A DNA stretch of 38,304 bases. Source: a virus. Numbering within the stretch: position 1 is the first letter of the stretch; each line of letters begins with the position of its first letter. Shown in pieces: positions 1 to 38,304 of the stretch. Where the stretch lies: the IMG/VR virus record IMGVR_UViG_3300042289_000484; one strand, written 5' to 3'. Both the position numbers and the translations under genes were made by a program. Under the pieces are notes generated by a model. That model did no database searches. It was not told the DNA's origin and worked only from the letters and a program-made list of their open reading frames with translations.

Positions 1-127
1 TTTTGCGTTAGAAAGCACGCATCAACAGGGGTTATCTTTGTGAATGTGCAAAATGGCTACGAACTGAATGAACTGCACAACGTGTACGCACCATCGCCGA
101 CCAATGGCCAGGTGCTTACCTATGTGT
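1..127. repeat. Terminal direct repeat, copy 1 (identical to 38178-38304); circular-closure overlap
   Basis: nt 1-127 (ttttgcgttagaaagcacgc...cttacctatgtgt) recur exactly at the 3' end of the window. Confidence 0.95.
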
Positions 128-1236
128 CCGGCAATTCACGATGGGAGGCGGCAACAGTAGCAGATCAGAGCGCGACCAATGAACTGCAAACGCTGTCGGT
201 GGCAACCAACACCGCAACCTTATCAAATAGTGGAGGTTCAGTAACCATCGCGGGTGGCGGTATTAACACAGTTGGAACAGCCGGTAGCACGATAACCGTC
301 ACAGGTACGGAGGTTGACGGCTCTGTAACCAACGAAATACAGACCATAGACCAGTTCTCACTTTCAGGGCAAACATTAAGCGCGTCTTTATCCTCGGACG
401 GTGTAGCGCCATCTACCGTGACGCTTCCGGTCGTGGGTATTACGGCGGGCACAAATGTGACGGTGAGTGAATCGGCGGGCGTGTACACGATTAATTCATC
501 CGGTGGCGGTGGTGGCTCTGGCATAACATCACTAAATGGATTAACTGCATCCACTCAAACATTTGCTACGGGCACGACCGGAACGGATTTTAATATATCA
601 TCCGCGACATCTACTCACACATTCAACCTGCCTACGGCCAGCGCAACAAACAGGGGCGCGCTGAGTAATGCGGATTGGACTACGTTTAATGGCAAACAGA
701 ATGCTTTGGTAGATATTGTAACTGGCAATGCAACTGGCGGTGGTGGAGGGGGAAGAATTGCCTTTTGGAATACTAATAACACGGTAACTGGTAGCAATCA
801 ATTTCTATATAATTCATCCAGTAGGAGGCTTGCCATTGGATATACTGCAACAGCGCCAAATGCTACAATACATTGTCAAACAAGTAGCGATTTGTCAACT
901 CTTTTTGTGGCTATATTCAGAAATACAACAAACGAAATAATGAATATAAGGGCTGACGGACGCACAGCATTTTTGGCTACCAACACAGCCACAGGCACAA
1001 CAGGCGCACAAACGATTAACAGGCCATCAGGAACGGTAAACTTTGCGGCTGGCGCAACTTCATTATTGGTCACAAATTCACTATGTACAACAGCATCCAT
1101 TGTTTTTGCGGTGGTAAGAACAAACGACACAACAGCATACATAAAGAACGTGGTTCCGGGCGCTGGCTCTTTCACGATTAATCTGGGCGCGGCTGCAACG
1201 GCTGAAACATCGGTCGGCTTTTTCATCATCAACTAA
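1..1236 (+). CDS. Tail fibre protein, C-terminal part of the wrap-around gene that starts at 37302
   Basis: Frame 1 is open from nt 1 and continues the 37302 ORF across the junction, so the GTG at 40 in the track is internal. Contains TNE(L/I)QT repeats and the fibre-type stretch LNGLTASTQTFATGTTGTDFNISSATSTHTFNLPTASATNRGALSNADWTTFNGKQ. Confidence 0.8.
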   Translation, partial: FCVRKHASTGVIFVNVQNGYELNELHNVYAPSPTNGQVLTYVSGNSRWEAATVADQSATNELQTLSVATNTATLSNSGGSVTIAGGGINTVGTAGSTITVTGTEVDGSVTNEIQTIDQFSLSGQTLSASLSSDGVAPSTVTLPVVGITAGTNVTVSESAGVYTINSSGGGGGSGITSLNGLTASTQTFATGTTGTDFNISSATSTHTFNLPTASATNRGALSNADWTTFNGKQNALVDIVTGNATGGGGGGRIAFWNTNNTVTGSNQFLYNSSSRRLAIGYTATAPNATIHCQTSSDLSTLFVAIFRNTTNEIMNIRADGRTAFLATNTATGTTGAQTINRPSGTVNFAAGATSLLVTNSLCTTASIVFAVVRTNDTTAYIKNVVPGAGSFTINLGAAATAETSVGFFIIN

Positions 1237-1247
1237 AAAAAATCACC

Positions 1248-1904
1248 ATGAAAAATATCATTGTAAAACTCATTCTCTTTTTCTTTTGCGCCACATCACT
1301 CAACGCGCAAACCATCGTGCAAGATTCATCCTGGCTCACTCAAACATCCGGCATATACTTTGCCAACCGCCTGCAAACGTACGACAATGGCAATAGCGTG
1401 CTGACCAGTACGAAAGTCGGTGACACAACAGCAGTCGTACAGGGCGCAATAAATGTGTACAGAAGTCAGGCATCCACAATGGCATCAGACGCTATTTTGT
1501 TATCCAGCAATGGCGCTAAAATTCGCGAAATCATCAGGCAGGACGGACTGCTTCAAACGCAGGTAGGTAAGTCGGCACTTAATCAGATTGCACTACAGGT
1601 GGATACGTCAACTGTGGAGGGCAAATACTTTACCGCTTCCGGCTGGACTATCAAGGACGGTGCAGCAGCAGCCCAAAATATTGTATTCTCATTCAATCCC
1701 ACTACGGGCGCATTCAGATATAAAATCGGCTCTGAAACGGTGCGTTTAGCGTATTGCCTGGGTAATGTCATCCGGTTAGCTAATTATGGAACTACAGGGC
1801 GCGCATTGGATTTTTACCGCGCACCAAATGGCCGCTGGGTGACGATAGATTTGCAGCAGCAGTTGATACCACCGCCTGCCATCATTCAAGCGCTTCGCAA
1901 CTGA
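1248..1904 (+). CDS. Hypothetical protein with Sec-type signal peptide
   Basis: 218-aa ORF. N-terminus MKNIIVKLILFFFCATSLNAQ has basic n-region, hydrophobic core and AQ end. Lies 11 nt after the fibre stop and 1 nt before the next ATG. No domain recognised. Confidence 0.6.
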   Translation: MKNIIVKLILFFFCATSLNAQTIVQDSSWLTQTSGIYFANRLQTYDNGNSVLTSTKVGDTTAVVQGAINVYRSQASTMASDAILLSSNGAKIREIIRQDGLLQTQVGKSALNQIALQVDTSTVEGKYFTASGWTIKDGAAAAQNIVFSFNPTTGAFRYKIGSETVRLAYCLGNVIRLANYGTTGRALDFYRAPNGRWVTIDLQQQLIPPPAIIQALRN

Positions 1905-1905
1905 T

Positions 1906-2637
1906 ATGGTCTATTCGCTTCACATCGGGATCAACAAGTACAGCGTAAGTGAGTACGGCGAAGGTGCGAACTTGACGCAATGCGTGCGCGATGCGTATGC
2001 GCTTGCTGAAATTGCGCGCACGAAATTTAACTCAAGCAATGCGCGTGTACTTGCGGACGAATTTTGCACACTCGCGAACATCAAGCACGAACTGACGAAA
2101 TACGCGCACCTGATGAACGCAAACGATGTACTGCTTTACACGCACAGCGGACACGGCACGTACCACGATTATCAGGGAACGCGCGCAACGGGTGTATGCG
2201 CGTATGATGGTGTCTTTTGGGATTTTCAGTTGTTTCCATTCTGGAAACAGTTCAGAGCAGGCACGCGCATTGTCAGGTTGATTGACACCTGCTACTCTGA
2301 ATCCAGCTTCAGGACTGCACAGCCACTCGGCAGGACACGTTTTATTCAGATGCCCAAAGCGCCTGTAATAAAGCCGACAACCAACAAGATGGCCGAAGTT
2401 CGGTGCAGCATCATATCTGTGAGCAGCAGCACGGTAAAGCAACCATCTTATGAGAATGACAAGGGCGGTGTGTTCACATTGGCGCTGGAGGAACTATTTA
2501 AGCAGCAAGCCATACCAACCTACAACGAACTGCACAAGTTCGCCACAGGGCAAATAAATGCGTGGAAATACCCACAGACACCGCGACTGGAGGCGCACAA
2601 TGCCGGACAATACAAGGCAAAGAAGTTTTTAACCTGA
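1906..2637 (+). CDS. Caspase-like cysteine protease (peptidase C14 family-like)
   Basis: 243 aa. HIGINKY near the N-terminus. LLYTHSGHG (His83, nt 2152-2154) and RLIDTCYSE (Cys129, nt 2290-2292) match caspase/metacaspase His-Cys dyad motifs. Confidence 0.7.
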   Translation: MVYSLHIGINKYSVSEYGEGANLTQCVRDAYALAEIARTKFNSSNARVLADEFCTLANIKHELTKYAHLMNANDVLLYTHSGHGTYHDYQGTRATGVCAYDGVFWDFQLFPFWKQFRAGTRIVRLIDTCYSESSFRTAQPLGRTRFIQMPKAPVIKPTTNKMAEVRCSIISVSSSTVKQPSYENDKGGVFTLALEELFKQQAIPTYNELHKFATGQINAWKYPQTPRLEAHNAGQYKAKKFLT

Positions 2638-2648
2638 AATAACGCCAA

Positions 2649-2915
2649 ATGCCACTACCCGAACTGCCAAACTCAAAGAATCTACCCTATTGGGTTATAT
2701 TTTGCCTGTGCGCTGCAATTGGGGTGCTGTATGGCAGGATAATGGAGATTGAACGCGACTGTGACACGGCGTTACAACAGGAGCGCGAATATTGGGAGCG
2801 AAGATTTACAGCAGAGCGAGAGAACAACGAAAAGATCAGAAATGAAATGCTGCAATTCGTAAGCGAACAGCGCGCAAAGTATGACGAATTATTAACCAAA
2901 GTTCGCACGCAATGA
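2649..2915 (+). CDS. i-spanin-like protein (N-terminal TM plus charged helical tail)
   Basis: 88 aa. TM segment YWVIFCLCAAIGVLYG followed by E/R/K-rich sequence. ATGA overlap with the next gene. Sits in a lysis context. Confidence 0.45.
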   Translation: MPLPELPNSKNLPYWVIFCLCAAIGVLYGRIMEIERDCDTALQQEREYWERRFTAERENNEKIRNEMLQFVSEQRAKYDELLTKVRTQ

Positions 2916-3232
2916 AATACATACTTCTTTCTACCTTGTTCGCTTTCGTTCTTTCGTTTTTCATCACGAATTGCGCGAAAGAAAATTACAGGCATCCGAC
3001 CGACCCACACGTAAACGATTACGCGAATGTTTACGCGAATGAACGCACGAACAGGCGCAATGACGAACAGGCGCAAATTTTCAGCACACCGGAGATACGC
3101 GCAATTGCGGAGCAGGCAGACAGCGCGAATGATGCCATGCGCGCACGTATTGCGCTTGAGCTTCGCAAAGCAAAAATGAACAAACAGGCAGGCGCGTGTA
3201 GTGCGACCTGCGACACATCATTAACACAGTAA
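2912..3232 (+). CDS. o-spanin-like small lipoprotein candidate
   Basis: 106 aa. MKYILLSTLFAFVLSFFITNC signal with Cys. Overlaps the preceding TM/coiled-coil gene. The lipobox is atypical (N at -1). Confidence 0.4.
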   Translation: MKYILLSTLFAFVLSFFITNCAKENYRHPTDPHVNDYANVYANERTNRRNDEQAQIFSTPEIRAIAEQADSANDAMRARIALELRKAKMNKQAGACSATCDTSLTQ

Positions 3233-3708: not shown

Positions 3709-3752
3709 GCATTCAAGGCACTTGATGCGTGTTTTTGATGATGAACGACAGG

Positions 3753-3789
3753 CCCGCCTGTGACAGCATGGGCGGGAACTGTTTTCTAT
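3753..3789 (+). terminator. GC hairpin with a weak T-run after the holin candidate
   Basis: cccgcc (3753-3758) pairs with ggcggg (3771-3776), followed by aactgttttc. Confidence 0.35.
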
Positions 3790-3803
3790 CAATTGAAAAG
3801 GCG

Positions 3804-3811
3804 TATCTTTG
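3804..3811 (+). promoter_or_regulatory. Bacteroidota-type -7 box TAtcTTTG
   Basis: Exact TAnnTTTG about 30 nt upstream of ATG 3843. Confidence 0.5.
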
Positions 3812-3842
3812 TCCGACACAAAACGGAGCGAAACAAGAAACC

Positions 3843-4391
3843 ATGTTTGCAAAACATATCACGCCTGAATTTTACCGCGCACTTGCAAAGGCATTGAAGT
3901 CTGCCAGGTTCACGCCTGTGCAGGAACAGGCGCCTAAATTGATTGCAGAGAACTGCGACCGCTTCAGCATCACCGACAAAAGGATGTTTGCCTATATGCT
4001 TGCTACCTGTTGGCATGAATGCAGATTCAAGCCTATACGCGAATTTAGAGCGGCTGAAGGCCATCCGGTAAGGGCAATGCAAGACAGGTACTGGAATACG
4101 GGATACTTCGGGCGTGGATACGTTCAATTGACGTGGAAGAGGAATTACCAAATTTGGAGCGACATCACGGGCGCTGATTTGGTAAACTTTCCCGATAGGG
4201 CACTTGAACCAACCATCGCTGCCTTTGTTTTGGTAAAAGGCATGAATGAGGGGTTATTTACAGGTAAGCGCTTAAGTCAGTACATTAATACTGAAAGGTG
4301 CGATTACTTCAATGCCAGGCGAACAGTTAACGGCGTGTTTCATGCCGACATAATAGAAAAGGCAGCCAAAGTCATAGAGGCTGTTTTGTAA
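3843..4391 (+). CDS. Endolysin, glycoside hydrolase family 19-like
   Basis: WHECRFKPIRE (two Glu) and GRGYVQLTWKRNY resemble GH19 catalytic and GRG.IQLT..NY motifs. Start moved from 3729 to the ATG downstream of the promoter. Confidence 0.7.
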   Translation: MFAKHITPEFYRALAKALKSARFTPVQEQAPKLIAENCDRFSITDKRMFAYMLATCWHECRFKPIREFRAAEGHPVRAMQDRYWNTGYFGRGYVQLTWKRNYQIWSDITGADLVNFPDRALEPTIAAFVLVKGMNEGLFTGKRLSQYINTERCDYFNARRTVNGVFHADIIEKAAKVIEAVL

Positions 4392-4426
4392 ATGTAGGTG
4401 TTTCTTTTTTTGTGTAGGTTCCACTT

Positions 4427-4458
4427 GCCCGATCTGATTTCAGGTCGGGCATTTTTTG
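4427..4458 (+). terminator. Rho-independent terminator ending the late/lysis unit
   Basis: gcccgatctg / caggtcgggc form a 10-bp stem (one G-U) with a 4-nt loop, then attttttg. Confidence 0.75.
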
Positions 4459-4477: not shown

Positions 4478-4508
4478 TTGACAAACATCAAAAAGGTTTA
4501 TATATTTG
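4478..4508 (+). promoter_or_regulatory. Promoter TTGACA-N17-TAtaTTTG (early unit)
   Basis: TTGACA at 4478-4483 and TAtaTTTG at 4501-4508. ATG 4535 lies 26 nt downstream. Confidence 0.6.
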
Positions 4509-5497: not shown

Positions 5498-5527
5498 TTG
5501 AATATTAAATAAAGTGCATTATATTTG
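5498..5527 (+). promoter_or_regulatory. Promoter TTG-N19-TAtaTTTG
   Basis: TTG at 5498-5500 and TAtaTTTG at 5520-5527. ATG 5532 is only 4 nt downstream, suggesting a near-leaderless mRNA. Confidence 0.5.
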
Positions 5528-5917: not shown

Positions 5918-6868
5918 ATGAATTTTCAACCATCAGAAACAGTATCAGTACCGGAGCAGCAGGGCCGCCCGTTCAGGCTGTTCATTGAGTACAAAGGCGG
6001 CAAAACACCATCCAATTTTGCAGCAGACGCCACCGCACATCAGGCAGGCGCCGGATTCAGCGCTTACGACAAAGAAGCGGAGCAGAGGCTGCAGTTCGAT
6101 TTGCCACTTGACCTGATTGTCATTGGCCAGGCATTTGGTGTAGCGGGCGTTACCAAAGTCGCAGATCGGTTTGAGGGTTATTACTCAAACATTGTGCGCG
6201 ACACAAGAACAGACATCATGCGCGTGTTCTGCAGGGGCATCAACAGGCCACAGCATCAGGGCGTGTACAAGGACATCAAACCTCAATTGCCTATGGGCGT
6301 AGGCTTTCAGCATTACTTCATCGTGTGGAACGTGGCGGCCAAAGAGATACAAGCGCTGCAACTGACAGTCGGGTTATCCAACCACATCAAGCGGGCCATT
6401 GCCGAGGCAGCATCTTTGGGCGGTCGCAAAGTCAGAGCCGACCGGGTGAACATTTTTGACCTGCTGACTATGGAGAACAGGTTTTACTACTTCCGGTTCC
6501 AAAATGAGTTTATCAAGGTGGACAAGGAAGGCAGCGATTGGTTGCAGGGTGAAGCCTATTTTTATCCGCGTGTCAAAGTGATGACTATCACAGACGCAAA
6601 GCAGGTGGAGTTCCTGAAGGCTGAAGGGGAGAAGTTTCAGAACTGGTTATCTTTGGACATCCTGAAGAACACCACAGCCGCCATGATGCCATCCACCGAC
6701 ACGCAGCAAGCGCCACAGGCACAACAACAGGCACAGCAACCATTGTACGAACAACAGTACAAACAGCCCGCACAGCAAAGCAATGCCAGGCAGGTTGATG
6801 TACCTGCACCATCATTCGATGATGGGTTCCCAACTTCAGAGCCGTTTAACGGCGATCTGCCATTCTAA
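5918..6868 (+). CDS. Putative ssDNA-binding/annealing protein with SSB-like C-terminal tail
   Basis: Roughly 260-aa globular part, then a Q/P-rich linker, ending in FNGDLPF (compare the SSB tip DDDIPF). Adjacent to the nuclease. Start set at ATG 5918 (MNFQPSE); the upstream part of the track ORF overlaps the previous gene. Confidence 0.35.
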   Translation: MNFQPSETVSVPEQQGRPFRLFIEYKGGKTPSNFAADATAHQAGAGFSAYDKEAEQRLQFDLPLDLIVIGQAFGVAGVTKVADRFEGYYSNIVRDTRTDIMRVFCRGINRPQHQGVYKDIKPQLPMGVGFQHYFIVWNVAAKEIQALQLTVGLSNHIKRAIAEAASLGGRKVRADRVNIFDLLTMENRFYYFRFQNEFIKVDKEGSDWLQGEAYFYPRVKVMTITDAKQVEFLKAEGEKFQNWLSLDILKNTTAAMMPSTDTQQAPQAQQQAQQPLYEQQYKQPAQQSNARQVDVPAPSFDDGFPTSEPFNGDLPF

Positions 6869-6892
6869 AACTTTTTCATGAGATCATTAAAC

Positions 6893-6922
6893 GGAAGCGC
6901 CTGCACAAGCGCGGGCGCTTCC
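6893..6922 (+). other. Perfect 9-bp GC-rich hairpin without a T-run
   Basis: ggaagcgcc (6893-6901) pairs with ggcgcttcc (6914-6922); 12-nt loop. Confidence 0.5.
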
Positions 6923-6934
6923 TCTTCCAAAAAC

Positions 6935-7225
6935 ATGGACACAGACACAGCAAAAATAAAGGAGCGAGCAAAGCAATTATCAGATGACCTGATATTGCAG
7001 ATTGAGGCTGCAAAAAAGAAAGGCAAAATATCAAACGTGCAGATTGCCAAAGCGCTGGACACTTCACCGCAAAACATCGGCGAAAAGCTGTCAACAGGCA
7101 AAAAGCGCGGAGCCTCTTATTTTGAACTTGCATCTATCATTTGTGCAATCGAAAGCATATCCGGTAAGAAGTTCATGCTTCCAAAGTTTTGCAGCGCTGA
7201 TTTTCCGCAAAGTAATGTCAGATGA
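6935..7225 (+). CDS. Helix-turn-helix DNA-binding protein
   Basis: ISNVQIAKALDTSPQNIGEKLS is HTH-like. ATG 6935 is preferred over 6878 because the hairpin lies in the extension. Confidence 0.5.
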   Translation: MDTDTAKIKERAKQLSDDLILQIEAAKKKGKISNVQIAKALDTSPQNIGEKLSTGKKRGASYFELASIICAIESISGKKFMLPKFCSADFPQSNVR

Positions 7226-7593
7226 TAAAATTAACATCTCTTTTCTCATGGAGGAAAGAAAAGCAAACAGCGAAGTCACAGTCAAACGATGTTGCCCGAT
7301 TCATTATCGCTGAAACAAAGGCGGGCCGCCCGTGCTGGATTCGCAAAATATCCGTACACGCTGATAAAATCGGGCATGATGGACTTTCTCAAATATCAAC
7401 AGCATCTGCCAGGGTGAACTATCTGCGTAAGCATGGCGCATTTATTACAGGGCAGCAGTACGTCATTCACGAACTGGAGCCGCGCAAATGCCCGTACAGC
7501 AATAGGCTGGTGGAACACTTTTGCATGGTGCTTGAAACGGAACACAAGCGCATACAGCAGGCAAAGGTTGACCGTGCCATCACAGGTGACTGA
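7222..7593 (+). CDS. Hypothetical protein
   Basis: 123-aa ORF with ATGA overlap to the previous gene. Confidence 0.55.
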   Translation: MIKLTSLFSWRKEKQTAKSQSNDVARFIIAETKAGRPCWIRKISVHADKIGHDGLSQISTASARVNYLRKHGAFITGQQYVIHELEPRKCPYSNRLVEHFCMVLETEHKRIQQAKVDRAITGD

Positions 7594-7613
7594 TTCGATT
7601 TATTTTGCATACG

Positions 7614-7635
7614 CCCGACCTAAAAGCAGGTCGGG
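7614..7635 (+). other. Perfect 8-bp hairpin cccgacct/aggtcggg
   Basis: Read by eye. 6-nt loop and no T-run. Confidence 0.5.
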
Positions 7636-7658
7636 AAGGACGAGGTTTGTTTAGATCA

Positions 7659-7690
7659 GCCCGATGATGGAAATTGTCGGGTATTTTTTA
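7659..7690 (+). terminator. Hairpin plus T-run
   Basis: cccgat / gtcggg stem followed by tatttttt. Confidence 0.5.
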
Positions 7691-7709
7691 ACATGAAACA
7701 ACGCAAAAA

Positions 7710-9092
7710 ATGAATTACCAGGAGTTTATTGAATCAAAAAAACATAAGTCTGAAAACTTTGGTATTGAGCCAAAGTGGATACCGGATGAAATGTTTGACT
7801 ATCAGAAGTATGTGGCTGAATACGCCATCAGAAAGGGCAGGTGCGCTGTCTTTCTTGATACCGGACTTGGTAAGACAATCATTGAGCTTACCACAGCGAT
7901 AAACTACATGATGCACACAAATAAGCCTGTGCTGATAATAACACCGCTGGCAGTGGCTTTTCAGTTTTTGACAGAGGCAGAAAAGTTTGGTATTACAGAT
8001 ATTGAATACAGCAAAGACGGTTCATTTACAAAAAAAATAGTAGTCTGCAATTACGAGCGACTTGACTATTTTAACTCTACCGACTTTGACTGTGTGATAC
8101 TTGACGAATCGTCTATCCTGAAAAACTTTGGAGGTGCCATAAAGCACAATATCACCACCTTCCTGAAAAAGGTGTCATACCGATTCCTGTTTACAGCAAC
8201 GCCATCGCCAAACGATTTTATTGAACTTGGTACATCATCTGAAGCGCTTGGTTATATGGGGTATATGGATATGCTTGGCAAATTCTTTGCCAACAACGAA
8301 AATAACATCAGGCCGCAGGACATAGGCACAAAGTTTTATCTGAAGCCACACGCAAAAGAGGCTTTTTTCAGGTGGGTAGGATCATGGTCAATATCAATGA
8401 GAAAGCCATCCGATTTAGGCTTCAGCGATGAGCGCCACATACTTCCAAAGTTGTTGCGCAACTACCATTCCGTAAAAAACGATGAAAATTGGATTATCAA
8501 CGGGCAGGTGCTGATGTTTTCAATTGTAGCGCAAAGAATGTCAGAGGTAAGAGAAGAGCAAAAAATGACTATCAAGAACAGAGTGGACAAGGCTATTGAA
8601 TTAGCCTCTGTTAACGATACTTCTGTTTACTGGGTGAATTTCAATGACGAGGGCGATTTGATTGAAGATATTGATGCTGATTCAATTCAGATACACGGCT
8701 CAATGTCGCTTGAAAAGAAAGAGGATATACTGTTTGACTTTGCCAAAGGCAATATCAAGCGACTTATCACAAAGCCAAAAATAACCGCATTCGGCTTAAA
8801 CTGGCAGCATTGCAATCACACCGTTTACTTTCCTACATTCAGCTTTGAGCAGTATTACCAGGCAATCAGAAGATTTTGGAGGTTCGGGCAAAAAAGAGAT
8901 GTGATTGTTGACATCGTGTATTCTGATGGACAAAAACGAGTGCTTGACGCGCTGAATCAGAAAACAGGTAAGGCAAACGAGCTATTCGGAATCCTGAATC
9001 AAAATCTGAATACATCATACGTTCACCAAAAGGCAGAGTTCAAAAAAGACATAACGCTGCCATCATTTTTAAACACGAGCCGAAATGATTAA
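7710..9092 (+). CDS. SNF2/DEAD-like superfamily 2 helicase
   Basis: LDTGLGKT (Walker A), VILDESS (DExx box) and QAIRRFWRFGQKRDV (SNF2 motif VI-like). Confidence 0.8.
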   Translation: MNYQEFIESKKHKSENFGIEPKWIPDEMFDYQKYVAEYAIRKGRCAVFLDTGLGKTIIELTTAINYMMHTNKPVLIITPLAVAFQFLTEAEKFGITDIEYSKDGSFTKKIVVCNYERLDYFNSTDFDCVILDESSILKNFGGAIKHNITTFLKKVSYRFLFTATPSPNDFIELGTSSEALGYMGYMDMLGKFFANNENNIRPQDIGTKFYLKPHAKEAFFRWVGSWSISMRKPSDLGFSDERHILPKLLRNYHSVKNDENWIINGQVLMFSIVAQRMSEVREEQKMTIKNRVDKAIELASVNDTSVYWVNFNDEGDLIEDIDADSIQIHGSMSLEKKEDILFDFAKGNIKRLITKPKITAFGLNWQHCNHTVYFPTFSFEQYYQAIRRFWRFGQKRDVIVDIVYSDGQKRVLDALNQKTGKANELFGILNQNLNTSYVHQKAEFKKDITLPSFLNTSRND

Positions 9093-10071
9093 TGAACAAC
9101 TAATCACCGACAATTATGCGATATACAACAGCGACTGTATGTATGTCCTTCCAACGCTGACTGACAAGTCAATTGATTTATCAGTCTATTCTCCACCGTT
9201 TGCCGGGCTGTACAATTACAGTTCGCATGAGAACGATTTTTCCAACTGTGAAAGCAAAGATCAATTTTTGCAGCAGTATGAGTTCTTGGTTGAGCAAATC
9301 AGCCGGGTAACAAAGCCGGGCAGAATATCAGCCGTTCATTGTCAGGACATTTGCGAGAATGTCACAAAGAACATCCTGTGGGATTTGCCGCACGAGATCA
9401 TCAAGATACACCTGAAACACGGCTTTACCTACCGGAACAGAATTACCATCTGGAAAGAGCCGTTAAAAGTTCGTATGCGCACGATGGTGGCGTCATTGAT
9501 GCACAAGTTGATAGTGGAGGACAGCACAAAGTGCTTTACCGCCATGCCCGACTATGTTCTGATTTTTGTAAAGAACGGAGAAAATCAGGTTCCAGTTCAG
9601 CATCCGGTAGGAATCACAGAATATGCCGGAGCAACACCGATGCTGCCTGAAATGGTTGAGATGTACGGCAATTATGAAGACTTGAAAAAGAAGTATGAAG
9701 GCCACGAAGACCCGAAGACAAACAAGCTGGCGCACATCCATTGGCAGCGATACGCCTCTTCTGTTTGGGATGACATCAGGAATGACAATGTGCTGCCATT
9801 CAGAGAGGCCCGCGAAGAGGATGATGAGAAGCACGTTCACCCGCTGCAACTTGACGTAATTGATCGGGTAGTTGAGCTTTACAGTAATCCGGGAGAAGTT
9901 GTGTTAACTCCGTTTATGGGAGTTGGTTCAGAAGTTTACAGTCCGGTTTCACATGGAAGAAAAGCCATCGGAATTGAACTGAAAGAATCCTACTACAAAC
10001 AGGCGACCATCAACGTGAAAGAGGCTGAAAAGCGGTTTATCGCAAAGAAAGCGCAACTTTCAATGTTCTGA
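9085..10071 (+). CDS. DNA methyltransferase (N6-adenine/N4-cytosine, beta-class motif order), orphan
   Basis: VYSPPF (motif IV) lies N-terminal and TPFMGVGSE (motif I FxGxG) C-terminal. 8-nt overlap with the helicase. No restriction enzyme nearby. Confidence 0.8.
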   Translation: MINEQLITDNYAIYNSDCMYVLPTLTDKSIDLSVYSPPFAGLYNYSSHENDFSNCESKDQFLQQYEFLVEQISRVTKPGRISAVHCQDICENVTKNILWDLPHEIIKIHLKHGFTYRNRITIWKEPLKVRMRTMVASLMHKLIVEDSTKCFTAMPDYVLIFVKNGENQVPVQHPVGITEYAGATPMLPEMVEMYGNYEDLKKKYEGHEDPKTNKLAHIHWQRYASSVWDDIRNDNVLPFREAREEDDEKHVHPLQLDVIDRVVELYSNPGEVVLTPFMGVGSEVYSPVSHGRKAIGIELKESYYKQATINVKEAEKRFIAKKAQLSMF

Positions 10072-17072: not shown

Positions 17073-17102
17073 TTGACAAATAAATAAAGGCGCGTATCTT
17101 TG
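17073..17102 (+). promoter_or_regulatory. Promoter TTGACA-N16-TAtcTTTG
   Basis: TTGACA at 17073-17078 and TAtcTTTG at 17095-17102 (TTG-N19-TA), in an A-rich intergenic region. Confidence 0.6.
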
Positions 17103-17430: not shown

Positions 17431-18198
17431 ATGGGAACTTTAGCCACAACCGGAATCACATTCAAACAACTTCACCATCAGGCAGCCCCGAATATCGGGC
17501 TGCGTGCCTGGCAGGTCAAGGTCAAGAAAATCACAGGCGCTTACGATGGCAACGCCATTGCTACGCCCGATCAGATAAACGCGCTGCTGTCAGCAAGCGC
17601 AAAGAGGATTCATACGATTCATACAGCCTCTACTAAAGCAGCAAAGGTTAGCTATTCCCATCGGCAACAGCCGGAGCCACAAGCGGTTCCGGCTGAACCT
17701 TTGGAAGTCAAACAGCCTGAAGTAAATCCTGAAGCGCAACAGCCCGAACAATATCAATCTTATCAGCCATACGAACCGGAGCCGCTTAACTGGCAACTGT
17801 GGGCCGTACTGGTGTTCTCACTTGGTTGCAGCGTGCCGAATATGTACAGCGTGGCGCTGCAAATGAAAGACAGCGCATTCTTAGCAATGGCGATAACCGC
17901 CACGTTTACAATCAGCCCGATGTTACTGCTTACATCCGATAACCGAACAGCGCGCATTGCAGCGTTTATCCCGATTGTTATTGAAGTATTCGCCAATACA
18001 GCAGGTTATTATGGCAACCTTTTGTCTATCACAGTAGGCAGCGACATCATCACGCCTGGTAAGTTCCTGAATATGGTCATGCAGATGGCAGGAACGGGCG
18101 CACGCGGAACAGCCTTATTTTTGGCACTCATGATGGCAGCGGCAATCGCTGCAATGTCGGTAGTGTCAGTTCACTCTATTATAAAAAAGGACGCATGA
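17431..18198 (+). CDS. Membrane protein: soluble N-domain, P/Q/E-rich linker, about four C-terminal TM segments
   Basis: 255 aa. QQPEPQAVPAEPLEVKQPEVNPEAQQPEQYQSYQPYEPEP linker followed by hydrophobic segments. Confidence 0.6.
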   Translation: MGTLATTGITFKQLHHQAAPNIGLRAWQVKVKKITGAYDGNAIATPDQINALLSASAKRIHTIHTASTKAAKVSYSHRQQPEPQAVPAEPLEVKQPEVNPEAQQPEQYQSYQPYEPEPLNWQLWAVLVFSLGCSVPNMYSVALQMKDSAFLAMAITATFTISPMLLLTSDNRTARIAAFIPIVIEVFANTAGYYGNLLSITVGSDIITPGKFLNMVMQMAGTGARGTALFLALMMAAAIAAMSVVSVHSIIKKDA

Positions 18199-18989
18199 AA
18201 CAGCATTACGAAGATGCCCACTATGAAGAAATAGGCGGGCAGGTTCAAAGAACAGAGCCGCCACCATTCCTTACTAAAAGGTTTGTCATTGTGGGTGCAA
18301 TTACAGCACTCGCATACAACTACGCCACCAAAGAGCGCGAAAGCCGCGATGTACTTGCATTCACCGATGAACCGGAGCAATCAAATACGCAGTTCGGACT
18401 GATGGCAACAGCGCCTGAAGCAAAGGCAGCCGCCAAAGTGCCGGAGCAGACAAACGGCCACGACCTTTTCAAGTACGTGATGCTGGAAACAAAGCGAAGG
18501 GAGGCATTAGGCAGGCGCGGTAAAGAACTGGAATCATACATGGATGGTGATTCACCTGCCATCGGGTACGGAAACCGCATCAAATACCTTTCTGCCAAAT
18601 GGAAGCAGGTAGTTGAGGAGCAGAACTACAAAGTAACGGAAGCGCAGGCGCGGGCCATGATGTACGACACGTTTGATAGCCTCAAAGAGACCATCAGCGC
18701 CGACCTGCCACATCTTGACCGGCACGAACTTTGGGCGGTTCAAAGCCTTGCGTTCAATTGGGGTTATGGTAACGTCAAACGATCAGCCCTGTATCAGCAC
18801 CTGAAAGCCGGAAGCAAAACAGGTGACGCACGCCGTGCCTGGATGAAGTGCCACGCAGCCACAGAGAACCACCGGACAAGCCGCCGCTTCGAGTGGGCGC
18901 TTTATACCGGAGACTTCAAAGAGGCAAAGAAATACGCGGACAAGGCATACAACAGTATTGCCGGACGTGGTGACTTGAAACATTATTGA
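18195..18989 (+). CDS. Membrane-anchored lysozyme-like protein (GH24/T4-lysozyme-like C-domain)
   Basis: Weakly hydrophobic segment FVIVGAITALAYNYA. RREALG..ELESYMDGDSPAIGYGN and WAVQSLAFNWGYGNVKRSALYQHLKAG resemble the GH24 EG..Y.D..G..TIGYG and AL.SF.FN.G...S.L...LN.G motifs. Confidence 0.55.
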   Translation: MKQHYEDAHYEEIGGQVQRTEPPPFLTKRFVIVGAITALAYNYATKERESRDVLAFTDEPEQSNTQFGLMATAPEAKAAAKVPEQTNGHDLFKYVMLETKRREALGRRGKELESYMDGDSPAIGYGNRIKYLSAKWKQVVEEQNYKVTEAQARAMMYDTFDSLKETISADLPHLDRHELWAVQSLAFNWGYGNVKRSALYQHLKAGSKTGDARRAWMKCHAATENHRTSRRFEWALYTGDFKEAKKYADKAYNSIAGRGDLKHY

Positions 18990-37301: not shown

Positions 37302-38304
37302 ATGAAATATAAACACATCATCTTATTTGCCGCACTTGCGCTGATTACAACAGCATCAAGCGCCCAAATACAATTTACAGCCGGAATCAATTACGAATCC
37401 GGCGTGCCATCAGGCGCACCATCATCCACAGGTTCACGCCTTCGGGTTGACCTTGCATCGGGGCGCATCTACCAATGGAGCGCGGCAAACACCACATGGC
37501 GCACGCTCGGTCAAGGCATTGATATTGTAGCCGGATGCGCTGCACCTGCCTACACGCCCGGATACGCTCAATCTGTGTTTGCGGTAAATGGCTGCTCCAC
37601 GCCCGAACTGTACTATTACAACGGCACGCAATGGAAGCAGGTTGCAGGCGGTGGTGGCGGTGGTGCTACATACTACGCAGGTACGGGTATTGACATTGAC
37701 GCAAACGACACTATCAGCATTGATACAGTACCACGTCTGATATTCTATTCAAATCAAACCTATTCAGGTGGTGTGGGTGCAATGCGGTGGAATAGTGACG
37801 ATGGCACACTTGACTTAGGTTTGAAGGGCGGTAATGTGACGCTTCAATTAGGGCAGGAACTTGTGCAGCCTGTAAAGCACGCTACAAACGGCGGGCTTGA
37901 TAATGGTAAGGTCGTGTACATTACAGGCTCTTCAGGTGACAATAAAACGGTTTTATACGCCCGCGCAAACAATGAAGCGACAAGCTCCAAAACGCTCGGC
38001 GTAATGACTGAAACTGTTACAGGTGGAAACAAAGGGTTTTGTACGACCTTCGGACTTGTGCGTAACATCAACACGTCAAACCTGACAGAAGGCGGCGCTG
38101 TATGGCTAAGCAAGGATACAGCGGGAGCAATGACAGCTGTAAGGCCGGAGGCTCCGAATCACGGCGTGTTCATCGGCTTTTGCGTTAGAAAGCACGCATC
38201 AACAGGGGTTATCTTTGTGAATGTGCAAAATGGCTACGAACTGAATGAACTGCACAACGTGTACGCACCATCGCCGACCAATGGCCAGGTGCTTACCTAT
38301 GTGT
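37302..38304 (+). CDS. Tail fibre protein, N-terminal part (continues at nt 1 of the circle; about 703 aa in total)
   Basis: ATG 37302 with no stop to the window end. Same frame as nt 1-1236 through the 127-nt repeat. N-terminus MKYKHIILFAALALITTASSAQ. Confidence 0.8.
   Translation, partial: MKYKHIILFAALALITTASSAQIQFTAGINYESGVPSGAPSSTGSRLRVDLASGRIYQWSAANTTWRTLGQGIDIVAGCAAPAYTPGYAQSVFAVNGCSTPELYYYNGTQWKQVAGGGGGGATYYAGTGIDIDANDTISIDTVPRLIFYSNQTYSGGVGAMRWNSDDGTLDLGLKGGNVTLQLGQELVQPVKHATNGGLDNGKVVYITGSSGDNKTVLYARANNEATSSKTLGVMTETVTGGNKGFCTTFGLVRNINTSNLTEGGAVWLSKDTAGAMTAVRPEAPNHGVFIGFCVRKHASTGVIFVNVQNGYELNELHNVYAPSPTNGQVLTYV
38178..38304. repeat. Terminal direct repeat, copy 2
   Basis: Identical to nt 1-127. 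Confidence 0.95.

Follow-up and report, generated by a model that had tools for sequence, protein, structure and literature searches.

A predicted metacaspase-type C14 protease encoded between the fibre genes and the lysis cassette of a siphovirus-type phage genome

Bacterial caspase-family proteases are currently studied as host-side effectors of cell death and defence. Their counterparts on the phage side are almost unstudied and fit well into current work on bacterial immunity. The orthocaspase MaOC1 of Microcystis is a calcium-independent, self-processing enzyme. Orthocaspases such as this one, the prokaryote-type homologues of caspases, cleave behind basic residues, and the two aspartates of the substrate pocket are said to accommodate such residues (PMC6426788). 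In the type I metacaspase TbMCA2 the S1 pocket is made up of Cys92, Asp95, Ser156 and Asp211, and the calcium ligands are Asp173, Asp189, Asp190 and Asp220 (PMC4357240, McLuskey and Mottram review). As to phages, eight metacaspase operons of Clostridium botulinum have been called phage-related (PMC3501461), and five viral contigs from freshwater sponges have been annotated with 'metacaspase-1' (bioRxiv 10.64898/2026.01.21.700432); both are annotations only, made without analysis of structure, context or function. Our search of the literature for characterised phage caspases or orthocaspases found no functional study. Here we describe a gene of an uncultivated virus for which an initial annotation, made from the sequence alone, had proposed a caspase-like product, and we compare the predicted protein and its genomic surroundings with these systems.

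The window, i.e. the whole stretch of 38,304 nucleotides analysed here (IMG/VR record IMGVR_UViG_3300042289_000484), is a complete siphovirus-type genome of 38 kb whose first and last 127 bases are identical (bases 1-127 and 38178-38304). Nearly all of its genes are located on one strand. The structural genes encode the small and large terminase subunits, a portal protein, a prohead protease and an HK97-type capsid protein, and further virion genes encode head-tail adaptors, a tail tube and tape-measure proteins; the replication module consists of helicases, a DnaB-like helicase, a replication initiator, a methyltransferase, a thymidylate synthase and an exonuclease. Neither an integrase nor a repressor was detected across the window, and the idea of a prophage defence gene was rejected on this ground. 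Megablast of the whole genome returned no match. The nearest isolated phages share at most 40% identity in the terminase and at most 38% in the capsid protein and, being spread over many host phyla, they are uninformative on the host.

Three independent sequence signals indicate that the host probably belongs to the Bacteroidota. Both exported proteins beside the protease carry signal peptides that end in Ala directly followed by Gln at position +1 of the mature protein, and this Gln is invariant among relatives, in which the rest of the peptide varies. Such an ending corresponds to the Q-rule of the Bacteroidetes (PMC5837995, PMC10653852), which was previously recorded for Porphyromonas phages (PMC10367356). 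A Shine-Dalgarno-like motif stands ahead of 1 of the 38 genes, against a background of 10%, and the leaders are A-rich. Finally, TAnnTTTG motifs, which we take to be the promoter type of the Bacteroidota, occur together with an upstream TTG in intergenic regions ahead of early genes; the promoter signal is weak, since the pattern with a fixed spacer was found only 3 times, where about 0.64 matches would be expected.

An ORF check recovered the protease reading frame exactly as it had first been called, with a product of 243 aa and a start 1 nt past the stop of the 218-aa ORF at 1904; 11 nt separate its end from the next gene, which starts at 2649. Homologues in metagenomes match with E values down to 2.9e-162. 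Compared with three IMG/VR copies of about 98% identity, the gene has a dN of about 0.014 and a dS of about 0.31-0.36 (dN/dS 0.04-0.05), so ORF 1906-2637 can be regarded as a real gene. A second group of copies (L001, L012, L049 and L009), compared among themselves, gave dN/dS values of 0.045-0.19. The protease gene is thus under strong purifying selection, and its GC content is ordinary. These selection data speak against a captured host gene that no longer has a role and persists as a decaying or non-catalytic remnant; the same holds for the catalytic and pocket residues, all of which are unchanged even in copies of about 25% identity. A truncated, chimeric copy of 157 aa in one relative (L010) and the absence of the gene from another (L047) do indicate that it can be lost; even so, we consider a remnant extremely improbable. 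Hydropathy analysis found no hydrophobic segment, signal peptide or transmembrane segment in the protease, which is therefore expected to be cytoplasmic.

Searched on its own, the window protein matched no Pfam family at E <= 1, Peptidase_C14 (PF00656) and CHAT (PF12770) included, and no PHROGs or NCBIfam model. Peptidase_C14 does match 13 of the 20 family members that were collected (best E value 4.1e-30), and the PADLOC caspase model (PDLC02987) scores 2.8e-9 on residues 3-107 of the window protein, a match that covers the p20 part and spans less than a quarter of the 453 model positions. C14 profile matches were thereby seen for the relatives in Pfam and for the window protein with the PADLOC model, but not for the window protein alone in Pfam, and none was seen for CHAT. 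Among the PDB sequences, phmmer retrieved the Geobacter caspase-like protein 3bij with an E value of 5.8e-10 and with the SGHG and D-x-C motifs aligned. The 20 family sequences were aligned, and this alignment (A1) served as the basis of both a family profile and an AlphaFold2 model. The profile matched 3bij at 2.1e-38 and the metacaspases TbMCA2, Yca1, AtMC4 and AtMC9 at 1e-21 to 1e-26, whereby the alignment with TbMCA2 extends to residue 235, through the p10-like region. The AlphaFold2 model (pLDDT 85, pTM 0.85) was compared with the PDB using Foldseek, which ranked 3bij first (TM 0.78, E value 3e-15), followed by metacaspases (about 1e-11) and then by MALT1 and caspases, these last three all with a probability of 1.00. 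The predicted fold is thus caspase-hemoglobinase-like. The result named at the outset as refuting a caspase-like product, i.e. no significant C14/CHAT profile match combined with a fold without this core or a non-adjacent dyad, was therefore not obtained. The initial proposal of a phage-encoded C14 caspase-like protease is borne out by the 3bij match, the PADLOC model, the family profile and the predicted fold, and the protein is predicted to be a clan-CD, family C14 protease of the metacaspase type, with p20-like and p10-like parts in one short chain.

The catalytic dyad was found at His83 and Cys129, where it had been placed from the motifs, and both residues are invariant in the 20 family members. 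In the profile alignment His83 corresponds to TbMCA2 His158 and Cys129 to TbMCA2 Cys213, the latter being an Ala in the mutant chain used for alignment, the numbering of which is offset by 20 from the published one; the predicted adjacency of the two residues in space rests on this homology. The equivalents of the S1-pocket residues are C26, D29, S81 and D127, all four of them invariant in A1. As the pocket aspartates are kept, cleavage is probably directed at Arg/Lys, in the manner of metacaspases, rather than at Asp, in the manner of caspases. Judged by its intact predicted active site, the enzyme would be catalytically competent. At the calcium site the equivalents are A94, D106, F107 and R136, i.e. 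three of the four aspartates are replaced and one is kept, and we infer an activity without calcium dependence; in A1 the first three of these positions are still Asp in P0018-P0020, which are distant cellular relatives. The first core strand comprises residues 2-8 of the AlphaFold2 model, with no N-terminal prodomain of type I, and the linker between the p20-like and p10-like parts, with only about 30 residues, is not the long linker of type II. Arg136 and Arg145 within this linker are near-invariant in A1, and the segment around them may be a candidate site of self-processing.

The genes around the protease follow the order 1016-aa tail protein, fib2, sp218, protease, p88, p106, holin-like protein and endolysin (Table 1). 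The upstream gene that had been annotated as a fibre gene is fibre-like, but the frame called for it (40..1236) is only the C-terminal part of the 703-aa fib2, which begins at 37302. The true start of the endolysin may be an internal ATG near position 3843.

Table 1. Features of the late operon around the protease gene, in window coordinates.
Feature	Position	Strand	Remarks
fib2, N-terminal part (703-aa fibre-like protein)	37302..38304	+	Signal peptide; ORF runs on across the terminal repeat
fib2, C-terminal part	1..1236	+	Weak match to phrog_677, tail-fibre connector
sp218, 218-aa exported protein of the fibre module	1248..1904	+	Q-rule Sec signal peptide; translationally coupled to the protease gene
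Predicted C14 metacaspase-like protease gene	1906..2637	+	ATG start, 243 aa
Predicted catalytic His83, codon CAC (THSGHGT, SGHG motif)	2152..2154	+	Invariant in A1; aligned to the His of TbMCA2 and 3bij
Predicted catalytic Cys129, codon TGC (DTCYSES, D-T-C motif)	2290..2292	+	Invariant in A1; aligned to TbMCA2 Cys213
Basic linker between p20-like and p10-like parts, about residues 134-166	2305..2403	+	pLDDT 55-73, poorly ordered
p88, 88 aa, i-spanin-like	2649..2915	+	One N-terminal transmembrane helix, coiled-coil-like tail
p106, 106 aa, o-spanin-like, lipoprotein-like	2912..3232	+	Signal sequence ends at Cys21; 4-nt overlap with p88
Holin-like protein, 154 aa	3244..3708	+	About four hydrophobic segments; weak Phage_holin_1 match
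Endolysin, GH19-like	3729..4391	+	phrog_181, 4.9e-22; Glyco_hydro_19, 6.7e-5
Strong terminator-like hairpin with T run, end of late operon	4426..4451	+

The description of sp218 as a signal-peptide protein directly upstream of the protease agrees with our data, its Sec signal peptide being conserved in relatives. It matched no Pfam, PHROG, NCBIfam or PADLOC model; its AlphaFold2 model is poor (pLDDT 65), and a fold search with it gave nothing below an E value of 0.04. A role of sp218 as a gasdermin-like substrate or pore-former was considered and dropped as unsupported, in view of the absence of a family match and the conserved Sec signal peptide. No gasdermin or other partner gene was detected beside the protease with Pfam and PADLOC, a result to be read with the sp218 model being too poor for remote folds.

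Between 1236 and 3708 the scoring gave no strong terminator-like site, and a strong one stands at 4426; the protease gene is therefore placed in the late transcription unit and is not a self-contained insert. The early region opens with a promoter-like site at 4478-4508. An independent moron with its own promoter and terminator was rejected, given that no strong terminator was scored and the GC content is unremarkable, and a TAnnTTTG motif at 1846 was discarded as a promoter of the protease gene, having no upstream TTG and lying inside conserved coding sequence. The view of a late gene packed between the fibre genes and the lysis cassette is thus upheld by the short gaps on either side and the lack of a strong internal terminator.

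In one transcription unit with the spanin-like, holin-like and endolysin genes and immediately ahead of them, the protease gene is positioned as might be expected of a lysis helper. Such an enzyme would be kept in soluble form in the cytoplasm, would reach the envelope through the holin lesions, like a canonical endolysin, and would cleave envelope proteins there, thereby completing lysis and freeing the virions. This is the main rival of a host-directed role, and we consider it unlikely. Candidate targets for it are outer-membrane-to-wall tethers or surface proteins. We know of no clan-CD protease that is a component of a lysis cassette.

IMG/VR copies of the same phage species (L004-L008, L011 and L013) show the same gene order. 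In the second group of about 38 kb (L001, L049, L012 and L009), the protease is 47-50% identical, and its gene again comes after a fibre gene and an sp218 homologue, from which it is either separated by a 1-nt gap or which it overlaps by 4 nt; the downstream region is unrelated and consists of a 72-aa ORF and then a reverse-strand 616-aa gene, and L001 has an integrase. That no lysis-cassette gene follows the protease in L001, L049 and L012 counts against a lysis helper. A further relative (L050) has a protease of 42% identity with an sp218-like gene (33%) upstream; the two are separated by the gene for a multi-pass membrane protein of 88 aa, and this immediate upstream neighbour of the protease gene again favours a role in lysis.

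The persistence of the sp218-protease pair at these levels of protease identity, together with the location of sp218 relatives among tail-fibre genes, would suit a maturation protease of the fibre module, which would process fib2 or sp218, e.g. by trimming a segment from the N- or C-terminus in the course of assembly or ahead of it. Against it, fib2 and sp218 have conserved Sec signal peptides and the protease has none, so that different compartments are expected for them. The two genes also occur apart from each other: sp218 is found without the protease in L044 and L045, where it lies between tail-fibre genes, and in L047, and the protease is found without sp218 in L048, L016, L052 and L053. 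We hold a fibre-maturation role to be decidedly unlikely. Synteny with the 1248-type gene, the search for which had been suggested, thus occurs at 47-50% identity but is not obligatory.

L047 (35.9 kb) resembles the window phage in the tail protein (51% identity), p88 (62%), the holin (74%) and the endolysin (55%). In this genome sp218 is followed directly by homologues of p88, p106, the holin and the endolysin (55-74%), and the protease gene is absent. The same lysis cassette is hence kept without the protease, which is not a constant member of it, and this speaks against a lysis helper. Being conserved where present and dispensable for the fibre and lysis functions in L047, the protease gene is therefore considered an accessory gene. 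By inspection of the sequences, p88, the 72-aa ORF of L001 and a 60-aa ORF of L048 show no mutual similarity.

A HMMER scan of 1.84 billion cluster representatives gave 1,891 matches at E <= 0.001, with 284 at E <= 1e-10 and 15 at E <= 1e-30, and many of the matches are stand-alone proteins of about 245 aa with 30-45% identity. The relatives that could be placed lie on phage-like contigs, in varied positions. In L016, a phage unrelated to that of the window, the caspase-like gene overlaps the stop of a GH25 endolysin gene, which itself comes after a small membrane protein and a tail fibre, and in L019 and L021 the gene is located among genes for lipoproteins and small transmembrane proteins; these placements favour a lysis helper. 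The relative in L020 has an N-terminal membrane helix of its own, and that in L014 precedes a portal gene. Outside a lysis cassette, and therefore against a lysis helper, are the copies of L052, between an amidase endolysin region and the terminase, and of L053. In the latter, as in L054, the gene lies in the early part of the 64-kb phage genome, immediately behind the gene for a 225-aa protein with an EAD11 effector-associated domain.

Among representative bacterial genomes, the relatives came from many phyla and did not go beyond 24-32% identity, and no close prophage copies were found in reference genomes. The window protein had no match in INPHARED, and the matches of two more canonical queries were limited to a single uncultured phage of 485 kb and a mis-filed Salmonella contig. 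A fold search of BFVD gave 24 matches at E <= 0.001, all from giant viruses or an ascovirus, with no bacteriophage protein among them. C14 genes are thus very rare in sequenced phages, and the absence of a PHROGs family and the INPHARED and BFVD results support the remark that such a gene is unusual in a phage.

The match to the PADLOC caspase model, the integrase of L001-type relatives, the pairing of one phage relative with an EAD11 protein and the sporadic distribution would also fit a suicide or exclusion toxin borne by the phage, i.e. a defence effector that kills the cell or blocks a competing phage, in the manner of the caspase-like defence effectors of hosts. We regard this as very unlikely. 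In the window the gene sits inside the late operon and lacks both a strong terminator-like site and a convincing promoter of its own, and the protease would therefore be silent in a lysogen; the genome has no detected integrase or repressor, and the protein has no sensor or partner domain, with gasdermin and CHAT not detected.

The best explanation, which we put forward tentatively and at a little below an even chance, is a cytoplasmic, late, probably Arg/Lys-directed accessory protease that cleaves host proteins, as a counter-defence factor or as an aid to release. The initial annotation had appropriately marked its proposed roles as speculative, and their range is narrowed by the dispensability of the gene in L047, by the lack of a CHAT match at E <= 1 and by the predicted metacaspase-like specificity. 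The protease would be made late, together with the virion and lysis proteins, and would act in the cytoplasm, possibly also in the envelope after the holin has opened the membrane. It would cleave after Arg/Lys without need of calcium, possibly after self-processing in the linker, and would be a non-essential factor directed at host proteins. Its most likely purpose would be to switch off a response that late phage proteins trigger in the host; alternatively, it could help in the breakdown of the cell and the release of virions. Counter-defence is favoured because of the sporadic presence of the gene, its varied positions among accessory genes and the pairing of one relative with an adaptor domain of conflict systems. 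Many abortive-infection sensors respond to late structural proteins, and this would fit the late expression of a counter-defence protease. Against the host-directed role stand the late expression, which is unusual timing for a counter-defence factor, and the fact that the analysis identified no defence target. The coupling of sp218 and protease down to 33% (sp218) and 42% (protease) identity could instead mean a role in the fibre module, and the ends of late operons may simply be a place where accessory genes commonly insert, which would account for the adjacency to the lysis genes.

A more specific form of this host-directed role is a phage weapon against host immunity that would cleave an immune effector or adaptor, with some relatives recruited to it via decoy adaptor domains (EAD11). 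We think it doubtful. In a bolder variant the protease would deliberately activate a host pore-former to drive lysis. If either of these is true, no other caspase-family enzyme would have been shown before to work for the virus in the conflict between bacteria and phages. More generally for the favoured host-directed protease, a host immune protein as the target would make it a new class of anti-defence factor, and an envelope protein as the target would reveal a new accessory lysis function for phages of Bacteroidota. A conserved phage copy with an intact predicted active site, placed in the virion and lysis operon, suggests that phages use this enzyme class for their own ends. The clade is small and tractable, with a protein of 243 aa and no partner domains, and L047 and L010 offer natural contrasts with and without the protease.

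Taken as a whole, the protein appears to be a divergent, phage-borne member of C14 of the metacaspase type, without a prodomain and without most of the calcium site. Its significant viral fold matches are limited to metacaspases and caspases of giant viruses and an ascovirus, which have eukaryotic hosts and are mostly longer proteins. The resemblance to the caspase-like proteases of bacterial defence operons, e.g. gasdermin-activating ones, lies in the match of the p20 part to the PADLOC model; unlike these, the phage protease is encoded by a late-operon gene, with no gasdermin detected and no sensor domain. The best match in both sequence and fold is GSU0716 of Geobacter sulfurreducens (3bij), which also consists of one short chain, has the SGHG and D-x-C motifs and carries no additional domain. 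The two share only about 22% identity, GSU0716 is cellular and uncharacterised, and the catalytic Cys is followed by Y/F in the window protein (DTCYSES) versus His in GSU0716 (DSCHSG). With the type I metacaspases TbMCA2 and Yca1 (C14B) the phage protease has in common the predicted fold, the dyad and the four S1-pocket residues, but it is about 100 residues shorter, has no prodomain and has three of the calcium aspartates replaced (A94, F107 and R136). Orthocaspases are by definition without a p10 part, and the phage protease, which aligns across the p10-like region of TbMCA2, differs from them in this respect; its substituted calcium site points in the same direction as the calcium independence of MaOC1.

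The ends of the window form a 127-bp direct repeat, so the window is a complete genome of approximately 38.2 kb. The fibre ORF listed as 40-1236 is in fact the C-terminal portion of fib2, a 703-aa fibre-like protein whose ORF spans the window ends (see table). Both fib2 and sp218, the 218-aa product encoded directly upstream of the caspase-like protease gene, carry a Sec signal peptide, and the glutamine at +1 of each follows the Bacteroidetes Q-rule. Among the fib2 and sp218 homologues on related contigs (L001, L004 and L007-L013) the signal sequence differs and the signal-peptide features are retained. Export of a tail-fibre-like protein and its neighbour sits uneasily with the assembly of virions in the cytoplasm; the two may be surface or periplasmic proteins that are not part of the virion, or fibres added to it after lysis.

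Features located in the window, with coordinates
Feature	Position	Remark
127-bp direct repeat	1-127 and 38178-38304	both window ends
703-aa ORF (fib2)	37302-38304, running on into 1-1236	crosses window ends
Sec signal peptide, fib2	37302-37370	Gln at +1
Sec signal peptide, sp218	1248-1310	Gln at +1
GC-rich hairpin	3753-3776	between holin-like gene and conserved endolysin part
TAnnTTTG motif	3804-3811	between holin-like gene and conserved endolysin part
TTG-N19-TAnnTTTG promoter-like sites	4478-4508, 5498-5527, 17073-17102	intergenic

The fib2 homologues of contigs L004, L007, L008, L011 and L013 were compared with those of the window, L001, L009 and L012. Among phages whose protease genes are approximately 98% identical, fib2 ranges from 694 to 929 aa and has two alternative C-termini (...AWVDLH or ...VGFFIIN); sp218 remains 87-94% identical. 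The pattern looks like the exchange of host-range cassettes. The promoter-like sites of the TTG-N19-TAnnTTTG type, the near absence of Shine-Dalgarno motifs (present at 1 of the 38 gene starts in the window) and the A-rich leaders are consistent with a Bacteroidota host.

Within the lysis cassette, the endolysin probably does not start with the GTG at 3729; a more likely start is an internal ATG around 3843. The gene may be transcribed from its own promoter. A second muralytic-domain protein of 264 aa is encoded at 18195-18989, distant from the cassette; its residues 109-220 match Phage_lysozyme (PF00959; E 2.6e-11).

A relative of the window phage, L047 (JGI 3300045125, 35.9-kb contig, ~6175-9300), has no protease gene between the sp218 and spanin-like genes, and a ThyX-like (Thy1) gene lies between its holin and endolysin homologues; since its ORFs appear fragmented, the assembly may contain frameshift errors. 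On L010 a chimeric ORF of 157 aa (1064-1537) is 73% identical to the protease over its first ~144 residues and similar to the sp218 C-terminus in its tail (41% over 56 aa). Its immediate downstream neighbours are genes for head-tail adaptor and tail proteins, an arrangement unlike that of the window.

A word search gave P0018, from a Campylobacteraceae MAG, as the closest cellular relative (25% identity); on L002/L003 (2173-5077) its gene immediately precedes one for a 704-aa protein of the papain family (Peptidase_C1). Among deposited phage records, a small C14 homologue turned up in just one, the unannotated INPHARED entry LR745208.1, a 485-kb uncultured phage (345844-346599; 33% identity to P0018 and to L015, another C14 query). 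On L016 (4297-6846), an unrelated 40.5-kb viral contig, the gene of a 117-aa membrane protein is followed by a GH25 endolysin gene, on whose stop codon a caspase-like gene begins (26% identity). A 64-kb phage contig (L053/L054, 6314-7732) carries a stand-alone caspase-like gene (34% identity) directly after that of a 225-aa protein with the effector-associated domain EAD11 (PF19964), a type of adaptor domain otherwise associated with bacterial conflict systems.
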